Shown here in pieces: positions 2,034 through 50,900 of a stretch of DNA of 64,000 nucleotides. The notes beneath the pieces are model-generated. The model was given only the letters and a program-made list of their open reading frames with translations, searched no databases and was not told where the DNA came from. The stretch is from a virus. A program made the translations under genes and the position numbers. The stretch lies in IMG/VR virus record IMGVR_UViG_3300041405_000225, positions 1 to 64,000 of that record. One strand, 5' to 3'. The stretch's first letter is position 1, and every line of letters starts with the position of its first letter.

Positions 2034-3392
2034 CTATTCCGCGAACGGCTCCCCGTAGGCGTCCAGACCGTTGTCGTTGAGGTGCTGGCGACCTTTCTCG
2101 CTCAGGAAATAGATGCCCTCGGCAACGTCGACCATCGACAGCGCCAGCAATGTCGTCAGGGCATCCTGATCGGCGATCTCATCCTCGGAAGCGGCTGACG
2201 TCTTGGCGATCGCCACCAGCTGGTCCAGGGCTCTGTCATCCATCTGGCGTTCGCTGGCACTGTCGAGCATCGCAATGGCAGCCCGGAAAGACTTGGCCAT
2301 GTGCAGCTGAAGCCGCGCTTGTTCAATCTTGCCCTCTGCCAGACTGATCGGGCCGTTATTCTCGACGGTATCTAAAGCTATCTTAAGATATCCTTTTGCG
2401 CCGTCGGTCGAGGCTGCATCGAGCATCACGCCCAGTGCCGCCGTCAGTTCCCTGGCGGCTACGTAGGAGCTGGCCAGCGACATGACTCCAGCGTCAGAGG
2501 TCGGCAGCGGTTCTTTGTACACGTCCATGGTTTCGATTGTCTGCGGACGATCGGCGCTGTCCATCATCGCGCCGCTGATGCCGCTAACGAAAATCGAATC
2601 AACGTCATGCAGCACCGCGTAAATCGTCTGCCCGCTTTCCGCGTCCTGCCTTACCGGCAACGCAACAGAGTAAAAGACCTTCGGCGCACTGAACTTCACT
2701 GCCACCACTACGCCAATGACATCGAACGGCGAACCGTCGGCCAGGGTGATGTTCAGACGGACTTTCCCGGCAACGCTTTCGGCAGACGGCAGAATGCTCG
2801 CGGTTGTTTTGTCGACGAACACCTGATCAACTAGCTTGAACCCAAGCCACGAGATCCCATCGGGAAGCATCGTTAGGTTTGGCTCAACGCTATCAATCAT
2901 CGCCCCCACGCCGAGTTTCGATTGCAGGTCGACGATAGTGGCTTTGCGCTCACTGATCTGCGCGTCCAGCTCACTCACCTGCTGCACCAAGGCATCGACT
3001 TGTTTTGGTTTAGTGGTAGTCATTCCCTTGGGCAACGCAATCGCTTTACGGGCCTGCGCCTTCTGGAATGCCCCCTGATTCTTTTCGGCCAGGCTCGCAA
3101 TTTCAGCGATCGCTTTGTCAGTGTCGGCGTGTTCCTTGAGGGGTTTGACCGAACCGTTGAGCAGCACCTGATAGATATCGCCTGTGCCATTGACCCGCAA
3201 CGTGATCAGCTGACCACTGGCAAGCGTGATGAACGCTTCTCTGTAGGTCGTATCGGAACTGCGGCGAGGTTTTTGATTGAATTCAGAGGAAACAACGGAT
3301 TGACCAGCACGCCCCAGCTGCTGAGTGATCTTTTGAAGTGCCTTTTCAGCGCCGGCAGGCGAAGAGAAGTCCAAGGTATTGGTTTTCGGCAT
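2034..3392 (-). CDS. DarA/Hdf-like head-associated antirestriction protein
   Basis: N-terminus (LASGQLITLRVNGTGDIYQVLLNG) resembles the DarA N-terminal domain; coiled coil; several M(L/I/M)D motifs; late promoter upstream. Confidence 0.65.
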   Translation of the reverse strand: MPKTNTLDFSSPAGAEKALQKITQQLGRAGQSVVSSEFNQKPRRSSDTTYREAFITLASGQLITLRVNGTGDIYQVLLNGSVKPLKEHADTDKAIAEIASLAEKNQGAFQKAQARKAIALPKGMTTTKPKQVDALVQQVSELDAQISERKATIVDLQSKLGVGAMIDSVEPNLTMLPDGISWLGFKLVDQVFVDKTTASILPSAESVAGKVRLNITLADGSPFDVIGVVVAVKFSAPKVFYSVALPVRQDAESGQTIYAVLHDVDSIFVSGISGAMMDSADRPQTIETMDVYKEPLPTSDAGVMSLASSYVAARELTAALGVMLDAASTDGAKGYLKIALDTVENNGPISLAEGKIEQARLQLHMAKSFRAAIAMLDSASERQMDDRALDQLVAIAKTSAASEDEIADQDALTTLLALSMVDVAEGIYFLSEKGRQHLNDNGLDAYGEPFAE

Positions 3393-3427
3393 GGCGGGGA
3401 ATCTCGGCGAGTGTGGTAATACGCGCC

Positions 3428-3469
3428 ATTTTGAAGCGGAAAAGCCCGGGCGAAATGTGGCGCTTTGCG
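3428..3469 (-). promoter_or_regulatory. Late promoter (CGCAAAG-N29-CAAAAT) of darA-like gene
   Basis: Member of 9-copy motif family with fixed 29-nt spacing. Confidence 0.6.
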
Positions 3470-3483
3470 CCGCAACCCCTCCC

Positions 3484-3522
3484 GCTTGCCTGTTCTTTCG
3501 CTGCGCTTCAGAACAGGCAAGC
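3484..3522. repeat. Perfect 13-bp inverted repeat GCTTGCCTGTTCT/AGAACAGGCAAGC
   Basis: Seen directly; no U-tract on either side, so may be a processing stem or 3' hairpin of the upstream RNA. Confidence 0.8.
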
Positions 3523-3526
3523 CCTC

Positions 3527-4114
3527 CCGGCCCCGTAAAGGTTTCGAGTGGTCCGCCTTGCTACTCACTTTCGGAAGAATCGGCGAGATTCCTGCCCCCA
3601 TTGCCCGCTGAGTAGACACTTCATAGACCTGCTGCATTACCGGACCTTATCCTGCTGGATGGTCCCCGCGGCGTTTTTAACGTGGTGCCGGTCTATTCCC
3701 CTTGCCCACATGGTAAAGCCCCCAGGTTGCGAGCCTGGGAAGGCGTGAAGCGCGTCGCACGGTCGGCCCTGTGCAATGAATCCCCATTGGGCCGTACAGT
3801 CGCAAAAGTGGGTAACAAACGCTTGATATCCAACCCCACCAATCGCATACGCTTACGTCCATTTTGCGCGCACGAAAACAACTCGGGCGCGCAAAAAAGC
3901 GCGACTGCTCGATGAGTTGAGGGGGCGGACCTGTAGACATTGGAGCTCATTCGCGCCAAAATTGGGCCTACAGAGTCGAGCATCCCGGCCGCCACAGCAG
4001 AGATTCCCCTCGACTCCAGGCTAAGGGAGTTTGCACCTCCGCGTAGCCCTTCAAGACCCGCTTATAGCGGGTCTTGTCGTATCTGACGCGCAGAATACTC
4101 GTGAAAATGACCGG
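3527..4114 (-). ncRNA. Putative ~590-nt highly structured non-coding RNA of unknown family
   Basis: More than 12 nested helices, pairing 5'/3' ends, G-U pairs mostly compatible with - strand, promoter with LexA box directly upstream. Confidence 0.6.
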
Positions 4115-4120
4115 CGCGCT

Positions 4121-4156
4121 ATAGTGGCAATTTGTACAGCCTGTATGTAACAACAG
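4121..4156 (-). promoter_or_regulatory. Sigma70-type promoter (TTACAT-N18-CACTAT, extended TG) overlapped by LexA box CTGTATGTAACAACAG (4141-4156)
   Basis: Perfect CTGT-N8-ACAG over the -35; predicted +1 near 4114. Confidence 0.7.
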
Positions 4157-4169
4157 TTTTATCCATAAA

Positions 4170-4180
4170 TATCCCCGGAC
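4170..4180 (-). promoter_or_regulatory. Phage operator-like motif GTCCGGGGATA
   Basis: One of 8 exact GTMCGGGGATA copies (167, 4170, 22358, 26303, 30155, 46419, 48905, 51040). Confidence 0.7.
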
Positions 4181-4258
4181 ATTGCGCCTCTCTACAGCCC
4201 CCATACTGCGGGCTCTCCCGACAGACGGTAGTACGCTGCCGGAAAAACAAAACCTCGA

Positions 4259-4807
4259 CTATGACGGCAGCGGCGGACTGGTCTGGCCGTTCAAACTGTC
4301 GCGATGCGGGTGCTCTTGAACGCTGATGCCATCGCTGGTGATGTCGCCACCGGTCTGCGTCACAGCCCCTTTAATCGTTACCGTCGCCTCAATACCAAGG
4401 GCCGTGGCGATCTGCTTGATTGAATCAGGCGTCAGGGTGATGGACGTCCCGCCCACAACCAGGGCGATTTTGGCACCCGCGTTCACGGTAAACACTTCGT
4501 CGGCGTTGAATTCAAAGTTGTCGTGATTCCAGCGCCGGGTGCTCTGTTCGTTTCCGATGTTCACCGCGCGGTTACCGACAATGATCGGATAGCGCTCATC
4601 ACCACCACGAAACGCCAGCCAGACCGGCATACCCGGCACCATTCGGATTTCGGTACCGCGCGAGTCGTCGCCCATTGGGTAGGACATTTCTGCGATCGGC
4701 CATTCGCTGGCGCCGTCGGTGTACGGGGAGAACGAAACGCGAATCTCCCGGCGCTCCCGGTTGTCCGTGACCGCCTCCACAAAGCCAGGCAGGTAATTAG
4801 GCAGCAT
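4259..4807 (-). CDS. Baseplate spike protein (gpV/gp5-like)
   Basis: OB-fold VWLAFRGGDERYPIIVG, beta-helix repeats, C-terminal GISVQEHPH metal-binding tip. Confidence 0.8.
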   Translation of the reverse strand: MLPNYLPGFVEAVTDNRERREIRVSFSPYTDGASEWPIAEMSYPMGDDSRGTEIRMVPGMPVWLAFRGGDERYPIIVGNRAVNIGNEQSTRRWNHDNFEFNADEVFTVNAGAKIALVVGGTSITLTPDSIKQIATALGIEATVTIKGAVTQTGGDITSDGISVQEHPHRDSLNGQTSPPLPS

Positions 4808-5696
4808 TGACCAAGCTCCCAAGCCACAAGCGACTGTAGCTCTCCATGGCGCCCGTCTTCTGGATCGCGGCATGGGCGGCAGTGATGACCACCAGGTTCT
4901 CCCCGCCCACCGTCAGCACATGGCCAGCCTGGATTTGCTGGCACTGCTGAGAGTCGACGGTTTTACTACGCACCAGCACGCAAGACGCGTTGCGCAGCTG
5001 ACGCTGATCGCCCCGCGGCATATAGCTGATCACACGGGACTCTCCCATTTGCCCAGTAACGATCGCGCCGGTGTCATCCACGCTGTAGAAGCTCGGGATC
5101 TGCTGAAGCTCAAGAAACTCGCTGTCGATCTTCGCGCTTGAGTCCACTTGGCCAATGTCGTCGACGGGTGCCTGCTTGGCGATATCGGTAAGGCGCATAA
5201 CCTGCAACTTCCCGCCGATCATCACCAAAGCGGCTCCCTCTTCCTGCAACACCCTGGCCACGCTGTAGCTGGGCTGGCGCCCACGAAAGCAAGTGAATCG
5301 CGGTACCGCGAAGTCGCTGCCAATGCGCAGGAACGCGCCACAGCTTCGCAGCACATTGGAAAACGGGGTGTCGCGCAGAACCACGGCCTGCGCCAGCGGT
5401 TCGGCCAATGGTGCGCAGCTGGCCAGCAAGGCGATAACACTCATCGCCTGTTGCTGGTTTTTGCCCTGAACCTCACCCTTCGGCGGCTCCTTGTGGGTTT
5501 TAACGATCTTGTACGGGAGATTTTCCCGGCCAGACCAAACAATGGTGCCGCGCTTAAGCTTGGCTTCCACGCCATCGATCAGCTTCACCGTGAATTCCAG
5601 GCTGCGCGGTACCGGCGTAAGGTCCGATCGGTTCACCCAGCGAATCACCACGTCCGTGGGCAGCTGATCACCGCTTTCACTCAGGTAGACGTTCAT
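4797..5696 (-). CDS. Baseplate hub-like tail protein
   Basis: 299 aa, directly upstream of spike as in P1-like tail operons. Confidence 0.55.
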   Translation of the reverse strand: MNVYLSESGDQLPTDVVIRWVNRSDLTPVPRSLEFTVKLIDGVEAKLKRGTIVWSGRENLPYKIVKTHKEPPKGEVQGKNQQQAMSVIALLASCAPLAEPLAQAVVLRDTPFSNVLRSCGAFLRIGSDFAVPRFTCFRGRQPSYSVARVLQEEGAALVMIGGKLQVMRLTDIAKQAPVDDIGQVDSSAKIDSEFLELQQIPSFYSVDDTGAIVTGQMGESRVISYMPRGDQRQLRNASCVLVRSKTVDSQQCQQIQAGHVLTVGGENLVVITAAHAAIQKTGAMESYSRLWLGSLVNAA

Positions 5697-44983: not shown

Positions 44984-46027
44984 CTACGCGGTCAGTCGGT
45001 TTTTAAAATCGCCACCCACCAGTTGCCCGAGCTTTGCTCTGGCCTGTTTGGCGACGTCGGTTATCTCGGACTTGGCGCCAGCCTTGATTGCGGGCGGCGC
45101 GACTTGAATAGGGGCTGCATTGGCAGCGGTGGCCACGGCCTTTTCGGCGCTCTCGCGGCGCAGGCGCTGTTTTTCCTGCGCTTGGGCTTTCACCACGTAG
45201 GATTCACAGTGGCGCAGTAGGGAGGCGATCGGGTGGCAGTTGTCGGCAATGGATGGCGTCTTGACCGCTTCGACGTAATACCGGGCGGTGAGGGGCGCGA
45301 TGTCCTGCCCAATGCGCTCGACAAGCTTGGCCATCTGTCCGCCGATCGTGGCGTTGTAGATCGGCCACTGGCGGTATTTGGTGTTGAACGCGATGGCATA
45401 CGCCAGCCAGGCCGCAAAAGTTTTGCTCTTCGGGCTCTGCGGGTAGTTGGCCGGCGCCAGCGCCAGCGCCTTTCGCTCTTCGTCACTCAGCGAGCAGTCG
45501 TCGTTCGCTCCCGCAGGGTCGTCGGTGAGGTTTTTGACTGCTCTTTCAATGCTAACTGCTTGTTTATTATTAACTAAAGCGTCCGGGTTAGCCGTATCCG
45601 GTTGAGCCGTATTCGGCGAATCCTCACTCGGTGCCACCGTTTCCGGCAAATCCGTAACCGGTTCGCCCTTGCTCTTTTTCTGGCTCGCGATGAACAACGC
45701 ACCAGCATCAAGATCCGGGTTTTCGGATACTTCGTAGGTCATCCCCTGGAAGGTGCCGCCCTGTCGGTCGTAGTGGCGGACCACGTAACCGGCCATTTGC
45801 AGTTCCTTGAGGATGCCATACACCTTGTCGCGGCCCGATCGCTTGCCCAAGCAATTACGCGTACGGGCCAGCAAGTCTTCAACGCGGACTTCCCAGTGAT
45901 CCGGCTTGCTCAGCAAATACACGAGCATGCCGCGGGCTTCCCAGCTCAATCGGTTGTCTTCGATTGTGGTCGTGGGCAGGACGTAGAACTGGCTTTTACG
46001 AGCGGCGCGAATGATGCTCATCAGCAC
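44984..46027 (-). CDS. Phage replication initiator (lambda O-like, N-terminal wHTH)
   Basis: DNRLSWEARGMLVYLLSKPDHW...ILKELQMAGYV; internal iterons. Confidence 0.8.
   Translation of the reverse strand: MLMSIIRAARKSQFYVLPTTTIEDNRLSWEARGMLVYLLSKPDHWEVRVEDLLARTRNCLGKRSGRDKVYGILKELQMAGYVVRHYDRQGGTFQGMTYEVSENPDLDAGALFIASQKKSKGEPVTDLPETVAPSEDSPNTAQPDTANPDALVNNKQAVSIERAVKNLTDDPAGANDDCSLSDEERKALALAPANYPQSPKSKTFAAWLAYAIAFNTKYRQWPIYNATIGGQMAKLVERIGQDIAPLTARYYVEAVKTPSIADNCHPIASLLRHCESYVVKAQAQEKQRLRRESAEKAVATAANAAPIQVAPPAIKAGAKSEITDVAKQARAKLGQLVGGDFKNRLTA
45561..45661. repeat. Putative replication origin: CCGTWWYCGG iterons at 15-bp period plus AT-rich tract
   Basis: Copies at 45592, 45607, 45637, 45652 (degenerate at 45577, 45622); AT-rich 45561-45578. 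Confidence 0.6.
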
Positions 46028-46342: not shown

Positions 46343-46469
46343 GCCTCTAATTCGGTGATTCAAAGGATAAGCTGCGCGCTGTATACCATACAGGCTTAGT
46401 GCCAGCCAATTAATCCCTTATCCCCGGACATTGTAAATACTGTTCTTTTGAACAGCCCTCCTATTTTCG

Positions 46470-49383: not shown

Positions 49384-49691
49384 CAACTACCGTTTGTCGT
49401 CTATTTTAAGCTCTATTGGAACTTACTCTAACGCTTGCTACCTTAAGCGAGTGTGGGGCGCAGTGTGGGACTGAGTTTTTCTGGCGTCAGGAAAACCCTT
49501 ATTTCACAAGGCTTACAGGCCATACATACCGGGGATACACCATCCCCGTAGCTTTCGGTAAAATCTGCGCCACTTATCCTAATGAAGTACGGATCGGGAA
49601 AATTTCCCTTACCCCTGTCACTCGGTCCGAGAATGGAAGCTGCAAGCAATGCGAACCCAAGCCGTTACACCCTGCAAAAAGGTCGAATACT

Positions 49692-50900
49692 ATGCCGCTC
49701 GCTCAAAAGGTTATCGCGACGATAACAGTCCCCGGCGTCTATGCCGATAAGAACGGACTAAGCCTCAAGGTTAGGCCCACTGGCACAAAATCGTGGGTAC
49801 TACGCTATCAACTCAATGGCGAACGCCATGACATCGGCTTAGGGTCATTTCCCGATATCAGCCTGGCCGACGCGCGCAAGAAAGCAATGGAATTTCGCGT
49901 TCAGATCAACAAAGGGATAGATCCACTGGAGCAACGCAAGGAAGCGACAATTGCCGCGGTTACCGTTGAAGATGAAGCGCTGACCTTTATTGAGCGACAT
50001 CGTGCAGGGTGGTCGGACAAGCACGCCACACAGTGGCTGAATTCGCTGACTGAGTATGTGTTCCCCGTCATCGGCAGCATGCCGATCGCCACCGTGGACA
50101 CACCCGACGTCATCAAGGTGCTCGATCCGATTTGGCTGCAAAAACCTGAAACAGCGCGCCGGGTCCGTAACCGCATGGAGCGGATATTCGATCACGCCAA
50201 GGCTCACGGGCACCGCAAGAACAGCGAAAACCCGGCGCGCTGGAAAGGCCATTTGCAAAACCTCATGCCCAACAACCAAAACTCGGTTGAGCAGCTGGAA
50301 AGCATGGATTTCACGCGCCTGCCTTTCTTTATGCGTGTGTTGGAAGGGGAGGACTCCCGGGCCGCCCGCTGCTTGCAGTTCCTGATCCTGACCGCATGCC
50401 GTACCAGTGAAGCCTTGGGCGCCACCTGGAGCGAAATCGACATGATCAATCGTGTCTGGACCATTCCAGCCGAGCGCATGAAGAACGGCGAAGAGCACCA
50501 GATACCGCTGAGTGAAGAGGCTATGCAGGTTCTACGCGACACTGGAACCCGCGGCAGAAGCGAGATCGTTTTCCCAGGCACGCGATCGACGACCATGTTG
50601 CCGGATAACTCGCTGCGCCGACTTTTGCGTAAATTGAAAGAGGACTGCACACCACACGGTTTCCGGGCAACCTTCCGCACTTGGGCGTCTGAGAAAACGG
50701 CTTTTTCGCACGAGCTGTGTGAAATATCGCTGGCCCACGTTGTCGGCAATGCTACATCGCGCGCCTACGTCCGTGGTAACCAGTTGGAGAAGCGCCGACC
50801 GCTGATGTCCCGCTGGTCGAAGTACGCTATGGACCGTGTAACACCGCATCACCCGATCATGGGAAAACAACCTACGCCCGAGCAAACAACATTTATATAA
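49692..50900 (+). CDS. int: Tyrosine integrase, P4/IntA type
   Basis: Arm-binding N-domain (GLSLKVRPTGTKSWVLRY..IGLGSFPDISLADAR); catalytic R, K, HGFR, LAH, Y intact. Confidence 0.93.
   Translation: MPLAQKVIATITVPGVYADKNGLSLKVRPTGTKSWVLRYQLNGERHDIGLGSFPDISLADARKKAMEFRVQINKGIDPLEQRKEATIAAVTVEDEALTFIERHRAGWSDKHATQWLNSLTEYVFPVIGSMPIATVDTPDVIKVLDPIWLQKPETARRVRNRMERIFDHAKAHGHRKNSENPARWKGHLQNLMPNNQNSVEQLESMDFTRLPFFMRVLEGEDSRAARCLQFLILTACRTSEALGATWSEIDMINRVWTIPAERMKNGEEHQIPLSEEAMQVLRDTGTRGRSEIVFPGTRSTTMLPDNSLRRLLRKLKEDCTPHGFRATFRTWASEKTAFSHELCEISLAHVVGNATSRAYVRGNQLEKRRPLMSRWSKYAMDRVTPHHPIMGKQPTPEQTTFI

Follow-up and report, generated by a model that had tools for sequence, protein, structure and literature searches.

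Sequence evidence for a ColE1-type replication origin between the spike and darA genes of a Pseudomonas phage-plasmid of about 80 kb

Introduction

The closest described counterparts of the locus reported here are the RNA-primed theta origins of the ColE1 superfamily. In ColE1 and pMB1, an RNA II of ~555 nt is overlapped at its 5′ end by an antisense RNA of ~110 nt with three stem-loops, a G-run hairpin is located ~265-285 nt before the origin, and a further G-run is found ~20 nt before it; a comparable arrangement of RNA II, antisense RNA and three stem-loops can be recognised in the locus described below, which also has two G-runs as candidate counterparts. With regard to phage-plasmids, phage P1 carries the plasmid origin oriR with RepA and the lytic origin oriL with RepL, the latter under the control of C1 and accompanied by an antisense transcript. 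The genome studied here resembles P1 in being a phage-plasmid that combines at least two replicon candidates with a partition system, and in having a transcription-dependent origin near a repeated operator-like motif. However, it contains neither RepL (PF05732) nor Rep_3 (PF01051), its origin appears to be RNA-primed and of the ColE1 type, and the DNA of the locus shows no similarity to any deposited phage in a blastn search against 50,697 phage records.

The prevailing view takes ColE1-like replicons to be small plasmids of high copy number that belong to Enterobacterales, Pasteurellales, Aeromonadales and Vibrionales (Ares-Arroyo et al., 2021; PMC8683028). The largest survey contains only one ColE1-like record from Pseudomonas, a fragment of 1.35 kb, and leaves undecided whether such replicons are rare in this genus or have been missed (PMC8683028). 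In the literature library searched, no phage-plasmid is described as having an origin of the ColE1 type. Here we present homology, the geometry of the RNA I and RNA II genes, conserved promoters and a covarying fold as sequence evidence that an unannotated intergenic element in a Pseudomonas phage-plasmid of ~80 kb is a ColE1-type replication origin, comprising the RNA II primer and the antisense RNA I. With high confidence, the element can be assigned to the RNA-primed theta origins of the ColE1 superfamily, where it most likely represents a second replicon of a prophage in the plasmid state. New are the carrier, a tailed phage-plasmid of ~80 kb, the host genus Pseudomonas and the divergence of RNA I beyond the Rfam model, while the kind of element is known.

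Results and discussion

The intergenic gap, its relatives and its coding content

The window, that is the whole stretch of DNA analysed (64,000 nt), covers the first 64 kb of an IMG/VR virus record with a length of 79.8 kb. The gap of interest (3393-4258, 866 nt) separates a spike-like from a darA-like gene, both of which are located on the minus strand. The coordinates of all features discussed are given in Table 1. Searching with the flanking proteins yielded seven viral contigs as relatives, four distinct ones of which share gap sequence with the window at 88-94% identity. One of the gap-sharing relatives is CP048608.1, a complete circular plasmid of Pseudomonas fluorescens DR133, and a sixth copy was found on an 82.7-kb contig of P. 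azerbaijanoccidentalis. The element was found in 1 of the 401 genomes of Pseudomonas species searched. In the phage-plasmid family it is unannotated and not typed by MOB-suite.

None of the gap ORFs matches a Pfam or PHROG family, and in the relatives they are interrupted by stop codons or by indels that are not multiples of three, with the exception of one short plus-strand ORF. A first-pass annotation of the window, made from the letters alone, had also seen no convincing ORF in the gap and had named coding potential in related phages as a check; apart from this exception, its view of the ORFs is borne out. The exceptional ORF comprises 77 codons (3682-3915) and lies within nearly invariant sequence, and across the wider family indels that are not multiples of three are frequent in its region. 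For ColE1, a RefSeq-derived table lists a 52-aa “replication initiation protein” in antisense orientation inside the RNA II region (L017:784-942, NC_001371.1). The ORF of the window is placed inside RNA II like this annotation and is probably spurious as well.

Table 1. Features of the origin locus and of the carrier genome. Positions refer to the window unless another record is given.
Feature	Position	Strand	Description
darA-like gene	2034-3392	-	DarA_N and Hdf-like PHROG matches
Conserved RNA II core	3480-3839	-	94-99% identical among relatives
13-bp hairpin	3484-3522	-	family-wide compensatory changes, 5 pairs double-changed
Origin-proximal signature motif	3497-3527	-	G-run, followed by conserved loop sequence
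Putative RNA II pre-primer, ~540-610 nt	3506-4114	-	ColE1-type homology and covariation; ends by analogy with ColE1
G-run hairpin	3764-3794	-	aligned with the ColE1 hairpin (917-955) bearing the G-rich segment ~265 nt upstream of the origin
RNA I promoter	3934-3962	+	-35 3934-3939, 17-nt spacer, -10 3957-3962
RNA I-like antisense RNA, ~115 nt	3969-4085	+	three stem-loops: 3973-4016, ~4019-4048, 4052-4076
Alternative RNA II -10 (candidate)	4092-4097	-	aligned to the ColE1 P2 -10 in the family profile, start ~4084
Upstream RNA II promoter candidate	4121-4150	-	-35 4145-4150, 18-nt spacer, TG-extended -10 4121-4126, start ~4114
15-bp near-palindrome	4133-4147	.	conserved in all relatives, including the origin-less L007
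LexA-like box CTGT-N8-ACAG	4141-4156	.	over the -35 of the upstream promoter
Repeated 12-nt phage motif	4170-4181	-	operator or gene-start element (candidate); no variation among six related genomes
Spike-like gene	4259-4873	-	Phage_base_V match
O/DnaD-like initiator candidate, 347 aa	44984-46027	-	N-terminal 150 residues match initiator/DnaD-/O-like PHROGs, best E 2e-13
Tyrosine integrase, P4-type	49416-50900	+	Arm DNA-binding domain
ParA partition ATPase	L020:7336-8109 (genome 69336-70109)	-	partition
184-aa HTH_36-like protein and repeat array	L020:16082-16910 (genome 78082-78910)		weak match to PHROG “replication initiation protein”

Homology to ColE1-type origins

In nhmmer searches, the 3′ two-thirds of the gap element match origin regions that are unannotated in small plasmids without a Rep gene (E 1e-19 to 1e-45). 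In a search of a plasmid collection, three such plasmids were matched in unannotated DNA, namely Zymobacter pZB5060, Oceanimonas pOCEGK02 and Oceanisphaera pC. With a profile of five phage copies, E-values of 2.6e-45 for pZB5060, 1.5e-33 for pOCEGK02, 1e-28 for another plasmid and 2.7e-19 for Aeromonas pAsal3 were obtained, and the Zymobacter region itself matches ~100 plasmids, mainly small ones of Aeromonas. Both pOCEGK02 and Aeromonas pAsa2 have been classed as “ColE1-only” (Ares-Arroyo et al., 2021, table S3; PMC8683028). In pZB5060, a Rop gene is convergent with the matching region, as in ColE1; the search for a Rop gene in the phage-plasmid found none, but the control genomes were silent in the same search. 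The Aeromonadales-type plasmids (pAsa2/pAsal3, pOCEGK02) and pZB5060 are the closest relatives of the element, with ~68-73% identity over up to 390 nt, and share with it the origin-proximal motif, the hairpin and the same covarying helices. They differ in the 5′ RNA I region, where no sequence similarity is detectable, and in their carriers, which are plasmids of 4-10 kb, often mobilisable (MobV/MOBP), from other gammaproteobacterial orders.

A profile of the whole family of 17 sequences matched ColE1 at positions 609-955 with an E-value of 4.9e-34, and the match runs colinearly, with the RNA II promoter at one end and the G-run hairpin at the other. With the profile of the five phage copies alone, ColE1 was not reached, and direct pairwise alignments of the window with ColE1, both local and global, were not significant. 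Homology between the window and ColE1 is thus transitive, as it is seen only via the intermediate plasmids, and in this form it is well supported. A further difference from ColE1, which is a small multicopy plasmid, is the carrier of the window's element, an 80-kb tailed phage-plasmid with ParA.

In a permissive Rfam scan of window positions 2800-4900 (E up to 10), only two chance-level snoRNA matches were obtained (E 3.9 and 7.9), and there was no curated covariance-model match to ROOL, GOLLD, OLE, HEARO or any other Rfam model. The RNAI model (RF00106) likewise found no match in this region at the same cut-off, and none in the copy from P. azerbaijanoccidentalis. Rfam misses the window because it models RNA I only and the RNA I of this lineage is too diverged. 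The first-pass annotation had interpreted the gap as encoding an undescribed RNA and had reasoned that a match to a described Rfam family would remove its novelty. No such match came up in the window, yet the kind of RNA is a known one, since the element is homologous to ColE1-type RNA II and is accompanied by a matching antisense RNA I gene, so that its claim to novelty fails in spirit if not by the letter.

The antisense regulator RNA I

The RNA I promoter is the only sigma-70-like site called by a promoter scan of 3350-4300, and in the relatives both of its hexamers are invariant across a spacer of variable sequence. A transcript starting at ~3969 would consist of a short 5′ tail and three stem-loops (fold z-score -3.3), with complementarity to the RNA II 5′ end; a U-tract terminator is not present on it. 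The three hairpins, of which 3973-4016 and 4052-4076 had already been listed in the first-pass annotation, are conserved across the six Pseudomonas genomes. The stems are retained in all of these, and variation is seen in the loops and in the apical portion of the first stem. Such variability is as expected for determinants of copy control and incompatibility.

The position of this gene corresponds to that in known ColE1-type origins. RNA I of the window is located 442-553 nt upstream of the origin-proximal motif, compared with 426-530 nt in ColE1 and 430-545 nt for the Rfam RNAI in those homologous plasmids where the contig spacing is readable. RF00106 scored above its gathering threshold of 47 bits in six homologous records (pOCEGK02 and five contigs of Aeromonas or Rheinheimera, at 54-75 bits), always in antisense orientation; ColE1, which served as the positive control of the scan and is not counted among the six, was above the threshold as well. 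The gap thus holds a gene for a stem-loop RNA of the RNA I size class (~100-115 nt) that overlies the RNA II 5′ end, at the distance from the origin (~445-555 nt upstream) that is characteristic of ColE1-like origins. It differs from its ColE1/pMB1 counterpart in falling outside RF00106.

The loop sequence UGCAAAC is most simply read as the middle kissing loop of RNA I and RNA II. It had been pointed out as identical to an upstream element of the late promoters, and a mimicry of these promoters was considered and rejected, as the 7-mer TGCAAAC is not enriched in the window (15 copies versus 13.8 expected) and the loop sequence is changed in one relative. Of the 15 copies in the window, 14 are located on the minus strand, with the total count at the chance level.

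Conserved fold of the RNA II core

The core of RNA II is more strongly conserved than the genes flanking it, as the spike gene is 75-89% and the 5′ end of darA 78-91% identical among the relatives. RNAalifold predicted 68 base pairs for an alignment of the core containing 17 sequences. In this alignment, 97.9% of the cells are paired and 31 of the 68 pairs are double-changed. The resulting covariation score of 0.404 was reached by none of 500 shuffled alignments (0.159) and is well above the values obtained with slid partners (at most 0.077), which argues for a conserved RNA II secondary structure. Four of the six pairs of the G-run hairpin (3764-3794) are double-changed, and covariation in the 17-sequence family was also found for helices 3721-3739 and 3561-3615; all three are among the helices listed in the first-pass annotation. 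Compensatory changes are present within the phage lineage as well. Owing to invariant G-U pairs, the fold can be assigned to the minus strand, as had been proposed from the window alone.

The architecture of nested helices drawn in the first-pass annotation is confirmed in part. All of the listed helices are complementary in the window and the local hairpins persist in the relatives, but the two long-range helices, namely the terminal closing helix 4109-4114/3527-3532 and the helix 3924-3930/3551-3557 that was thought to close a domain of ~370 nt, are broken there. The minimum free energy of the whole element gave z-scores of -2.2 for the minus and -2.0 for the plus strand against shuffled sequences; the folding energy is thus lower than that of the shuffles, as anticipated, but it does not discriminate between the strands. 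Since the values are similar on both strands, folding energy alone says little.

Start, ends and proposed function of RNA II

Two candidate starts of RNA II are to be considered. The -10 hexamer of the upstream promoter candidate and its TG extension, which the first-pass annotation had recognised as an extended -10 promoter (4129-4121), are invariant in the six genomes, and this candidate is not called under the strict criteria of the promoter scan. The alternative hexamer at 4092-4097 is invariant in the relatives too, has a poor -35, and may serve as the -10 of RNA II by analogy with ColE1. If RNA II starts at 4114, it may have an extra 5′ hairpin compared with ColE1/pMB1.

Towards the 3′ end, the upstream G-run hairpin aligns with ColE1, and an origin-proximal G-run is located at 3522-3528. 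The origin-proximal motif is common to small plasmids of Aeromonas, Oceanimonas, Zymobacter and Rheinheimera. Pairwise comparison of the 3′ half with ColE1 was not better than with shuffled sequences (z 0.8), and therefore the point of origin is uncertain by ~40 nt. From MAFFT and pairwise alignments to ColE1, the switch from RNA to DNA would be at or just upstream of the 13-bp hairpin, with 3542-3544 and 3506-3510 as the two placements. The length range given for RNA II in Table 1 depends on the choice of start (4114 or 4084) and of end, and includes the 555 nt of ColE1. The first-pass annotation had described a structured minus-strand RNA of ~590 nt with its own promoter, and this description proved appropriate, as a non-coding RNA of ~570-610 nt with a conserved promoter region is supported. 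What did not survive is the function it suggested, an antirepressor, a sponge or a scaffold, in place of which the homology identifies a counterpart of the RNA II pre-primer of ColE1-type plasmid origins.

According to the ColE1 paradigm, from which priming chemistry, exact ends and dependence on host factors are taken here, host RNA polymerase would transcribe RNA II on the minus strand from near 4114 or 4084. After ~540-610 nt, the folded transcript would remain hybridised to its template near 3506-3545, and the hybrid would be processed to a primer with a 3′-OH end, as is done by RNase H in ColE1. DNA polymerase I would then extend this primer leftward, in the direction of darA. From the plus-strand promoter, the antisense RNA I of ~115 nt would be produced, which would pair via its three loops with nascent RNA II, block primer formation and in this way set copy number and incompatibility. 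Replication via RNase H and DNA polymerase I without a plasmid-encoded Rep protein is therefore predicted by the paradigm.

The spike-darA gap as a replicon slot

Comparison of the relatives shows the gap between the spike and darA genes to be a slot for replicons. L006, a complete record of 77.6 kb that has terminal repeats, and L012 both contain in this gap a RepA gene of family PF10134 (E 1e-53 and 1e-63, respectively) together with five or six iterons at a spacing of 21 nt. In both records, RepA is on the opposite strand (L006:4736-6010, L012:2443-3770), and a complete iteron replicon replaces the ColE1-type origin. L007 and L008, which are classed as proviruses by IMG/VR, have a gap of 340 nt, in which a PAAR gene is found together with the palindrome located over the -35 in the window. 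The PAAR-motif protein of L007 is encoded directly after the spike gene (L007:4583-4801), a place at which the window has no PAAR gene.

Other initiator candidates are found elsewhere in these genomes. In two relatives that carry the origin, a RepA gene with iterons is additionally located ~6-7 kb beyond darA. CP048608.1, a circular plasmid of 81 kb with ParA, has neither a typed replicon nor a PF10134 gene, and the window's genome contains no PF10134, PF01051 or PF05732 gene. At the syntenic place, both of these genomes encode a 184-aa HTH_36-like protein instead of RepA, which in the window's genome is preceded by an array of short repeats at a spacing of 24-25 nt. This gene and its array, whose position is syntenic to that of a RepA module with iterons in the P. 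azerbaijanoccidentalis relative (L039:917-2223), form a candidate second replicon with an undescribed type of Rep. The 347-aa protein, which has no Pfam match, is likely an initiator of the phage type. The idea that the ColE1-type element is the sole replicon is weakened by the iteron-like array with its HTH gene and by the RepA genes in two origin-bearing relatives, and the element is read here as one of at least two replicons of the genome.

These observations extend the ColE1-type origins, in a diverged and conserved form, to a family of Pseudomonas phage-plasmids of ~80 kb in which one intergenic slot swaps a RepA-iteron replicon for an RNA-primed one. RNA-primed replicons in phage-plasmids escape protein-based replicon typing, and the element could offer Pseudomonas vectors a native origin of the RNA-primed type. 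For the discovery of new RNAs, a note of caution follows, as large conserved structured intergenic RNAs beside phage genes can be origin primers.

Upstream regulatory elements and an inducible origin

The 12-nt motif upstream of the RNA II promoter region had been marked in the first-pass annotation as a phage operator (4170-4180) and is indeed repeated, with 14 copies in the window at up to two mismatches versus 3.3 expected (167-178, 4170-4181, 46419-46430 and 11 more). Copies are present at syntenic sites in CP048608.1. Because a start codon often follows 3-17 nt after the motif, it may be either an operator or a gene-start element. The near-palindrome was also considered as a repeated late-promoter box and rejected, since it occurs in a single copy in the window.

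The LexA-like box, described previously as perfect, has its CTGT-N8-ACAG core in the window, where this core occurs twice versus 0.78 expected. However, at the origin it is intact in only two of the six genomes, the window and the P. azerbaijanoccidentalis element, and is degenerate in the other four. The SOS control proposed for the RNA is accordingly weakly supported, and an SOS input for the origin would be lineage-specific at best. A different pattern is found at the O-like initiator gene (44984-46027), where the pair of motif and box located upstream is identical in CP048608.1. An SOS input is therefore plausible for the O-like initiator gene. All three exact copies of the 12-nt motif in the 64-kb window are accompanied, at a distance of 4-13 nt, by a box of the form CTGT-N8-ACAG or -ACAA, while a fourth exact copy at genome position ~77218, beyond the window, has no adjacent box.

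These elements raise the possibility that the same origin functions as a lytic or induced origin, with RNA II transcription being repressed in the prophage by a phage regulator that binds the motif or the palindrome, and in this lineage by LexA, until DNA damage fires it. The invariance of motif and palindrome at or upstream of the -35, the boxes adjoining all three exact motif copies within the window (though not the fourth beyond it), the conserved box beside the O-like initiator gene in CP048608.1 and the separate iteron-type candidate replicon, which could serve plasmid maintenance, are consistent with this interpretation. It is nevertheless judged rather unlikely, as the LexA-like box at the origin is degenerate in four of six genomes, the motif may be a gene-start element in view of the start codons closely behind it, and an antisense copy-control RNA is typical of steady-state maintenance. 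In a more elaborate version, a tailed phage-plasmid would have acquired the origin and turned it into a switch gated by damage and by a repressor, with RNA II transcription under the control of the repeated motif, the palindrome and, in this lineage, LexA. RNA I would keep copies low in the prophage state and induction would lead to RNA-primed runaway replication; we regard this as speculative and give it somewhat less weight still.

Non-replicative interpretations

The assignment as a ColE1-type origin was also weighed against interpretations in which the element has no role in replication. It could be an inert relic of a small ColE1-like plasmid formerly cointegrated with the phage, given that the site is variable, with nothing or a RepA replicon at this place in some relatives, and that the genome has other replicon candidates. 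An inert remnant is difficult to reconcile with a core that is 94-99% identical in six genomes in which the flanking genes are 75-91% identical, with two invariant RNA I promoter hexamers on either side of a variable spacer, and with compensatory changes within the phage lineage, and it is considered very improbable.

Equally improbable is a cis-acting role of the element as a long, structured 5′ leader of the darA anti-restriction operon. The element is on the same strand as darA and immediately upstream of it, with no canonical terminator between them, and the relatives that lack the element retain the palindrome directly upstream of darA. However, homologous sequence occurs in plasmids without darA, and a leader would need neither an RNA I gene nor an origin motif; read-through from the origin element into darA may occur as a side effect. 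That the RNA represents a novel class of large ornate RNAs with a function outside replication (antirepressor, sponge, anti-defence or scaffold), for which the size, conservation and structure of the RNA and the lack of an Rfam match could be adduced, is hardly tenable in view of its significant homology to ColE1-type origins of small plasmids without phage genes, an RNA I-type antisense gene at the canonical distance, and proposed closing long-range helices that are not conserved.

Further features of the carrier genome

Besides the partition ATPase, the genome encodes a P4-type tyrosine integrase (Table 1), and among its relatives there are circular plasmids as well as records with a provirus classification. 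Three giant polyvalent proteins are encoded on the minus strand: a protein of 1244 aa with InPase, DarA_N and ddrB-ParB domains (L020:10838-14572), one of 1272 aa with LPD3 and methyltransferase domains (genome 62157-65975) and one of 774 aa with an LPD1 domain (L020:3968-6292). Judging by these domains, the three proteins look like a DarB-like anti-restriction arsenal.
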